Shown here: in pieces, positions 31,636 to 32,052 of the stretch
Position numbering within the stretch: position 1 is the stretch's first letter
Layout of the letters: each line of letters begins with the position of its first letter
Assembly (NCBI RefSeq): GCF_006345805.1
Contig: NC_043006.1
Span: forward strand, 68,758,001-68,822,000
Length of the DNA: 64,000 bases
DNA from: Octopus sinensis
Lineage: Eukaryota
Reading direction: 5' to 3'
The notes under the pieces: generated by a model
What the model was told of the DNA's origin: nothing
Databases searched by the model: none
The model's input: only the letters and a program-made list of their open reading frames with translations
Made by a program: the position numbers and the translations under genes

Positions 31636-32052
31636 ACTGTTATTCTCCTTGTCCTGTTTTTTACTGTTTTTATTTGTATTGTTTTTACTGTCCTGTTTTG
31701 TTACCATTTACCCCTCCGCAAAAAAATCACAAATTTTATTTAATTTGTTTTGCGGGAAGGATTGTTTCAACGGAGTCATGTTTCGCCTTTACCTTCGAAA
31801 CATGGAGTAGACGAAGTAGAGGCGGCTGAAGAAGGGGAATTTTACTTGTGTTGTATGTCTTGTACTCTGTTTTTTCATTGTTTAAAAAAAATTGTCCGTT
31901 TCCATGGTTTTGTTTTATGTTTTCGTTTCGCATTGTGTTCGACGTTTTTTTTGGTGTCCTGTACCCATATATACATGTATATATACATATAGATGTAGGT
32001 ACGTACATATATGTATGTATATATCCATATGTTTTATTTATCATCTTTTTAT
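31632..32052 (+). mobile_element. Non-coding element in (TA)n carrying permuted HHR family 2
   Basis: Homologous to the reverse complement of 62082-62610 (shared GATGTAGGTACGTACATATATG tail). Confidence 0.75.
31742..31841 (+). ncRNA. Strand-permuted hammerhead-like motif, family 2 (copy D)
   Basis: GAAGG(P2)...CATGT-T-TCGCCTTT-a-CCTTC-GAA-ACATG...AGAGGCGG-CTGAAGA. Confidence 0.72.

Follow-up and report, generated by a model that had tools for sequence, protein, structure and literature searches.

Background

Hammerhead ribozymes of types I, II and III are recognised by a cyclic C-G-S order of their core blocks within a nested three-way junction, block C carrying CUGAnGA, block G the GAAA core and block S the cleavage site between stems III and I. 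The order S-G-C has been published as type SGC by Eckert et al. (2023; PMC10085705). The present study deals with a hammerhead-like motif in this S-G-C order in a stretch of 64,000 nucleotides (nt) of the Octopus sinensis genome (contig NC_043006.1, positions 68,758,001 to 68,822,000, forward strand), referred to below as the window. The core of this motif is opened between A9 and G10.1, and this arrangement is called the split form here. Its carriers are dispersed repeats that resemble Penelope-like elements (PLEs).

According to the portions of Eckert et al. (2023) consulted, type SGC (the HRIMA-1 motif) cleaves in vitro at 0.007-0.13 per min and requires a fourth helix between stems I and II (PMC10085705). 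The SGC ribozymes came from metatranscriptomes, genomes of known organisms having given only one GCS candidate, and the origin of the permutations was left open. Among PLEs, the Naiads were reported to be without a canonical hammerhead in the accessible parts of Craig et al. (2021; PMC8557442), where some of them are flagged HHR_core or HHR_half_core with no structure given, the octopus element being an HHR_half_core.

The feature described here is real. Its strand order, which an earlier note made from the letters of the window had presented as undescribed, is that of type SGC as it appears in the sections consulted (Eckert et al., 2023), so that this claim of novelty is partly refuted; a core opened at A9|G10.1, a setting in an animal genome and its retroelements and a link with Naiads were not found in print. 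In the literature covered, most subscription papers and the supplement of Eckert et al. (2023) lying outside it, neither the split form nor a non-circular hammerhead in Naiads was described, and the portions seen of Perreault 2011, Forgia 2023, PMC13725137, the 2026 retrozyme preprint and PMC6962438 held nothing on the split layout.

Layout of the motif in the window

A scan for the three hammerhead blocks in any order detected the S-G-C layout, with matching spacing, six times in the window. Two of these copies, D and E, had been proposed in the earlier note as hammerheads in c-b-a order; all motif strings quoted for them were recovered in place, and a strand order outside types I, II and III was borne out, the blocks running S-G-C in place of the cyclic C-G-S order and nested three-way junction. 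In copy D (+) the key positions are G10.1 31756, U16.1 31781, H17 31782, G12 31797, C3 31826 and A9 31832; those of copy E (-) are G10.1 62371, U16.1 62351, H17 62350, G12 62336, C3 62308 and A9 62302. The four further copies have U16.1 at 18329 (+), 18580 (-), 27037 (-) and 58630 (+). Since the stem II strand that partners CUGAnGA is placed 5' of all other parts, the core is open between A9 and G10.1. The features are as follows.

31633..32053 (+): copy D, a 5'-truncated non-coding dispersed repeat with (TA)n on both sides and 30 genomic sisters
31756..31760 (+): stem II 10.x strand, G10.1 first, 5' of the remaining parts; compared over 10 D-like families
31762..31768 (+): 5' strand of linker helix L, the counterpart of helix I in type SGC; perfect in sisters, in D decayed with 3 G-U pairs
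31777..31788 (+): block S, with stem III strand, U16.1, H17 (predicted cut on its 3' side) and stem I strand
31792..31804 (+): block G, with stem II 11.x strand, GAA (31797-99) and stem III strand
31813..31819 (+): 3' strand of linker helix L
31820..31832 (+): stem I 2.x strand and CUGAAGA core (31826-32), A9 being the end of the ribozyme
62082..62611 (-): copy E, of a related young repeat family with a unit of about 800-836 nt at tandem loci
62302..62371 (-): split hammerhead of copy E
18309..18381 (+): split layout, family F1
18528..18600 (-): split layout, inverted duplicate of the F1 copy
26985..27057 (-): split layout, family F2
58609..58683 (+): split layout, family F3

Rfam returned no hammerhead match up to an E-value of 10 at D or E alone, and none among the best 150 of 321 matches over the whole window. 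A minus-strand hammerhead at D was also considered; the any-order scan gave none.

Abundance and core conservation

A genome-wide pattern search, a check that the earlier note had put forward in c-b-a order, was made with block G followed by block C and found the layout spread over the genome and well above control. In the 2.72 Gb searched, CGAAA-N22-26-CTGATGA gave 11,982 matches against 708 for a reversed control, and CGAAA-N22-26-CTGAnGA with A, C or G at N7 gave 20,113 against 2,811, the G-then-C pattern as a whole amounting to about 32,000 matches against about 3,500. An intact S block (a U-H site with a stem III of at least 4 pairs and a stem I of at least 3 pairs, in register) was present in 23 of 60 unselected matches, these being the first 30 listed per search, compared with 0 and 3 in displaced control windows; a control set of viral contigs matched by a looser pattern passed in 1 of 80 cases.

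Where the core was left open in the pattern, CUGAnGA was kept in 91 of 100 D-like matches among those listed. Over the 100 matches N7 was T in 64, A in 33, G in 2 and C in 1, with variation between subfamilies, and each of the other core positions was altered in at most 3 (all counted by eye). H17 was G in 1 of 87 instances. Spacing was narrow, with 15-18 nt from U16.1 to G12 and 27-30 nt from G12 to C3. The marks of the hammerhead class were found together: a CUGAnGA and GAAA core with free N7; an NUH site flanked in register by stems III and I, with A15.1-U16.1; and three covarying stems with G10.1-C11.1, these last across related families that are not independent.

Source of stem II and the linker helix

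An upstream stem II of at least 4 Watson-Crick pairs, with its strand 33-46 nt upstream of G12, is present in 16 of the 23 intact unselected copies, the same test giving 0 in a control window and 0 directly after A9. For further comparison, 82 instances, picked by their stems I and III alone, were clustered into 17 families. The upstream stem II averaged 4.35 bp for cognate strands and 2.45 bp for swapped families (0 of 20,000 permutations), and all 13 families with an upstream stem of at least 4 Watson-Crick pairs have G10.1-C11.1; the strand directly downstream showed no cognate excess (3,037 of 20,000). When 10 D-like families were aligned on sequence alone, the four helices had 89.8% of their cells paired (0 of 500 shuffles), slid controls reaching 33-46%, and double changes were seen at 18 of 22 pairs. 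The stem II 10.x strand of D was 100% paired in these families, with double changes at 4 of its 5 pairs. A 16-family MAFFT alignment put block S out of register and was left out of the counts.

Helix L begins at most a few bases away from the upstream stem II strand and finishes beside the stem I 2.x strand, and, like the fourth helix of type SGC, it joins the distal ends of stems I and II. It covaries over the 17 families (10 of 20,000 permutations) and, in an anchored test, over 13 hand-picked copies (0 of 20,000), and it reaches 10 bp in L010. Covariation across families, a check named in the earlier note, was thus observed by permutation for both the upstream stem II and the linker helix. 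The block order S, G, C of type SGC is also present; an uninterrupted block C, with a stem II strand within 1-2 nt of A9, is not, apart from a weak G-U alternative in D- and E-like families.

The pairing of the two long linkers suggested earlier is supported as helix L, although the register given for D (TTGTTT/AGACGA) is wrong; the register supported by the families pairs 31762-68 with 31813-19, reads CTGTTTC/GAAACAG in intact sisters of D, and leaves D a stem I of 5-6 bp. The extra helix (CTCTCG/CGGGGG) said to close the gap in E showed no covariation across families (7,113 of 20,000 permutations) and is not a conserved part. Several Naiad consensus sequences have, by eye, a local hairpin directly beside G10.1 in place of such a helix. 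Copy D itself is probably a weakened, decayed copy: most copies of its family have a GUC site and a stem III of CGTGT/ACACG, so that D has drifted to GUU, and its constrained scaffold score is -5.9 kcal/mol compared with -15.4 kcal/mol for the sister L027.

Carrier repeats

The 30 sisters of D have one 3' end in common, located about 320 nt beyond the start of the query and bordered by (TA)n, and their 5' ends vary. The E family is young, 29 of its 30 best loci being identical over 116 nt (these are top matches and not a sample), and it occurs as partial tandems with a spacing of 556-836 nt and as inverted copies; tandem units overall measure 556-858 nt. In their (TA)n targets, 5' truncation, partial tandems and inverted copies, the carriers match the anatomy of non-autonomous PLEs, as far as this is set out in the parts of PMC8557442 consulted.

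No coding frame belonging to D, E or F was found, and none with the N-terminal GIY-YIG and C-terminal reverse transcriptase (RT) of Naiads; lacking such a frame at their loci, these repeats would be at most non-autonomous dependants. The open reading frames (ORFs) upstream of the motifs (36 of 62 candidates and one extra) were fragments of long interspersed nuclear elements or unrelated. Five intact GIY-YIG ORFs were considered as the parent and set aside, as they belong to canonical PLEs with a C-terminal endonuclease and the stretches examined hold no split motif. The canonical PLE of the window was likewise rejected as the carrier of F1, the element ending at a (TA)n run before the F1 copy. 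From the shared anatomy and ribozyme type we infer that D, E and F may be mobilised by Naiad proteins.

Among the runs listed as carriers of the sequence, none was recognisable as RNA, their kinds being guesses. Contigs of four runs cover the E unit and span the predicted site, with neither joints nor piles of ends. Two contigs, 869 and 846 nt in length, match roughly one E unit and would fit a circle as well as a tandem. A pyrimidine tract and CAG resembling a 3' splice site stand immediately 5' of G10.1 at 62372-62395 (-), in D-like sisters and in many D- and E-like families, and the octopus Naiad has a donor-like GTATGT 5 nt after A9. A 3' splice site at G10.1 was unsupported, the triplet being CGG in D and absent in F, with no joint in the contigs of the four runs.

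The window also holds a degraded canonical PLE (RT, then C-terminal GIY-YIG) at 20843-23147 (+) with an adjoining inverted, 5'-truncated copy at 19269-20488 (-), a pair distinct from the split-ribozyme repeats. A young canonical PLE family with many intact frames of 781 aa was seen at L226:432-2774. Candidate hammerheads of canonical order (type I-like) lie at about 38280-38345 (-), 44930-44965 (-) and 31440-31490 (+), the first of them similar to the motif beside the canonical PLE of L226. At 34520-35547 and 42745-43796 there are long inverted repeats, 7-9 kb apart and 94-96% complementary, and an RT fragment (RVT_1, E 5e-10) at 25315-25656 (-) was unmatched by the PLE query.

Naiad elements

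The 3' ends of Naiads were read by eye from text searches of File S5 of Craig et al. (2021), not computed; the searches took in 60 of the 81 places of one word, 60 of the 62 of a second, 15 for each of two others and a further three record ends, with none for CTGAAGA. By this reading the split form is present in Naiad_Bfor, Amil, Aacu, Anas, 2_Movir, Obim and Ovul, with stem sequences that differ in each lineage, as well as in one record each of parts 12 and 19; Naiad Esco has it with a damaged stem II. These elements include those of a ctenophore, cnidarians and cephalopods. In nematode Naiads (parts 13-16), eight passages at 3' ends read as type CSG, three of which were assigned to Naiad-1, -2 and -3_Nbra. 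Reversed-ring hammerheads would then be carried by at least 18 of the 54 Naiad families; the bivalve records gave no match in these text searches. At the 3' end of Naiad_Bfor a hairpin-like insertion of ~55 nt separates stem III from helix L, and stem I has only 2 bp.

The motif of the octopus Naiad has 161 exact copies in the present genome, with 0 for the control. The link between its ORF and the motif in this genome rests on the published consensus.

Proposed mechanism and alternatives

With a probability of about 0.72, the split form is taken to be a cis-cleaving circular permutant of type SGC that processes PLE transcripts. It would derive from a reversed, non-circularly permuted ring with the cyclic order P1'-CUGAnGA, P2 10.x strand, S, G; opened at different points, this ring would give CSG, SGC and GCS, and opened between A9 and G10.1 it would give the split form. 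Helix L and stem III would form a rod, whose apical loop (H17, stem I strand, short linker, stem II 11.x strand and GAA) would pair back with the two strands leaving the far end of L, so that stems I and II arise as pseudoknots. A rod with a double pseudoknot had been suggested in the earlier note, and this structural reading holds and is strengthened. L would link stems I and II at their distal ends in the manner of helix I in type SGC, an equivalence that gives the core geometry a tested precedent. The standard core would then cut 3' of H17, most likely in cis, and in tandem transcripts one cut per unit could release unit-length RNA or define its ends. The processing role is suggested by the role proposed for the hammerheads of other PLEs. 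New demands of the split form would be the covalent link from L to the S block and the open A9|G10.1 step. Single-strand folding was no better than that of shuffles (z -0.19 and +0.31), as is expected of a pseudoknotted fold.

Several points weigh against this reading. The break at A9|G10.1 touches a known metal site. With stems I and II held open, only about 9 of 16 copies had the rod of L and stem III as their best fold, and D, F1 and F2 of the window and one Naiad copy were not among them; helix L is also the least regular of the helices, with 73.5% of cells paired in the 10 D-like families. Since the families are related, the permutation counts overstate independence, and stems I and III had served for selection in the 17-family test. 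No intact S block was found in 37 of the 60 unselected matches, through decay, truncation or chance. A random genome sample of 400 kb held no convincing copy, only four loose matches at control level, so that the window is richer than the genome average. No Naiad ORF was found upstream of any D, E or F copy. In the portions of Eckert et al. (2023) consulted, CUGAnGA is assumed to lie within 1-2 nt of the stem II strand and never to be split (PMC10085705).

The alternatives can be ranked, although their estimates partly overlap. The identical pairings may form in trans, the apical loop docking into the open end of a tandem neighbour or of a second molecule, which we regard as unlikely. Tandem units of 556-858 nt are available for this, action in cis would need the rod to fold back on itself, and metazoan PLE hammerheads are poor as monomers and better as dimers (PMC4209133, as far as seen). 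However, stem III is connected to stem I by way of helix L just as in type SGC, which the available text describes as cut during transcription of single units (PMC10085705), and stem III has its full 4-7 bp in the split families, unlike the minimal stem III that forces dimers; cis is favoured.

Still less probable is that the D- and E-like families are plain type SGC with one extra base after A9, their stem II being formed with the G-run downstream and the upstream strand acting as a decoy or off-switch. A weak G-U stem II right after the core is indeed possible in these families. The G-run one base after A9 is conserved and pairable, with 84% of cells paired in the 10 D-like families, mostly G-U, and some covariation (3 of 500 shuffles); at least 4 pairs with it are possible in 8 of the 23 intact copies, a further count against an exclusively upstream stem II. 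An extra nucleotide between 9 and 10.1 is, moreover, conserved in PLE hammerheads according to the parts consulted of Cervera and de la Pena (2014; PMC4209133), and in E the upstream stem II belongs to the free minimum-energy fold. Nevertheless, the G-run stem has 4 bp, 2 of them G-U, where the upstream stem has 5-6 Watson-Crick pairs; it does not occur in the F families, L121, L169 and L194 or, by eye, in coral, box-jellyfish and octopus Naiads; the downstream strand lacks a cognate excess over the 17 families; and it is the upstream strand on which helix L is anchored. A relic, or a non-catalytic structure serving the retroelement as a protein-binding or priming signal, with hammerhead-like words retained, is the least probable of all, for while cleavage by the split form is predicted from sequence alone, many copies are decayed and bivalve Naiads gave no match in the text searches, the free N7, an H17 other than G, A15.1-U16.1 and G10.1-C11.1 are kept across families and phyla as every stem sequence changes.

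Significance and comparison with known systems

Returning to the cis-cleaving permutant of type SGC, we think it reasonably probable that the hammerhead opened at A9|G10.1 is active and that the reversed ring is the missing ribozyme of the Naiad clade. Within that reading it seems similarly probable that elements of ctenophores, cnidarians, crustaceans and cephalopods carry the split form and those of nematodes type CSG. If so, non-circularly permuted hammerheads would be among the most abundant ribozymes of invertebrate genomes, shifting from rare environmental RNAs to high-copy animal genomes, and head-to-tail Penelope tandems would be a route by which the ring reopens. The scheme of six permutations assumes that CUGAnGA is inseparable from its stem II strand and would be broken by the split form. 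The spread of Naiads without hammerheads, the basis in the sections consulted of PMC8557442 for the idea that these ribozymes may merely parasitise PLEs, would be overturned, and two permutations of one ring in one transposon clade would make the origin of the permutations testable.

The type I and minimal hammerheads of PLEs and of non-long-terminal-repeat retrozymes are, in the parts of the sources seen (PMC4209133; bioRxiv 10.64898/2026.07.22.740005), similar in lying near the 3' end of PLE repeats, with many families per genome, and in their tandem non-autonomous units; they differ in their canonical C-G-S order and often in a minimal stem III that needs a dimer. The D, E and F repeats differ from Naiads in being non-coding, the parent ORF not having been found at the loci examined, and resemble them in (TA)n targets, 5' truncation, partial tandems and inversions, with the split motif at several consensus 3' ends (PMC8557442, in part). 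Type CSG, presented in the accessible text of PMC10085705 with two metagenomic sequences, has an identical ring of strands and helices and is opened between G and C, whereas the split form is opened between A9 and G10.1. In type SGC, CUGAnGA is joined to its stem II strand and the ends of the RNA fall before S, whereas in the split form this strand precedes S and the ends fall at A9|G10.1; type SGC is known from environmental RNAs, and the split form from tens of thousands of copies in an animal genome. The two nevertheless share the S-G-C order, the standard core, a short connection leading from stem I to stem II, and a fourth helix by which these stems are joined at their distal ends.
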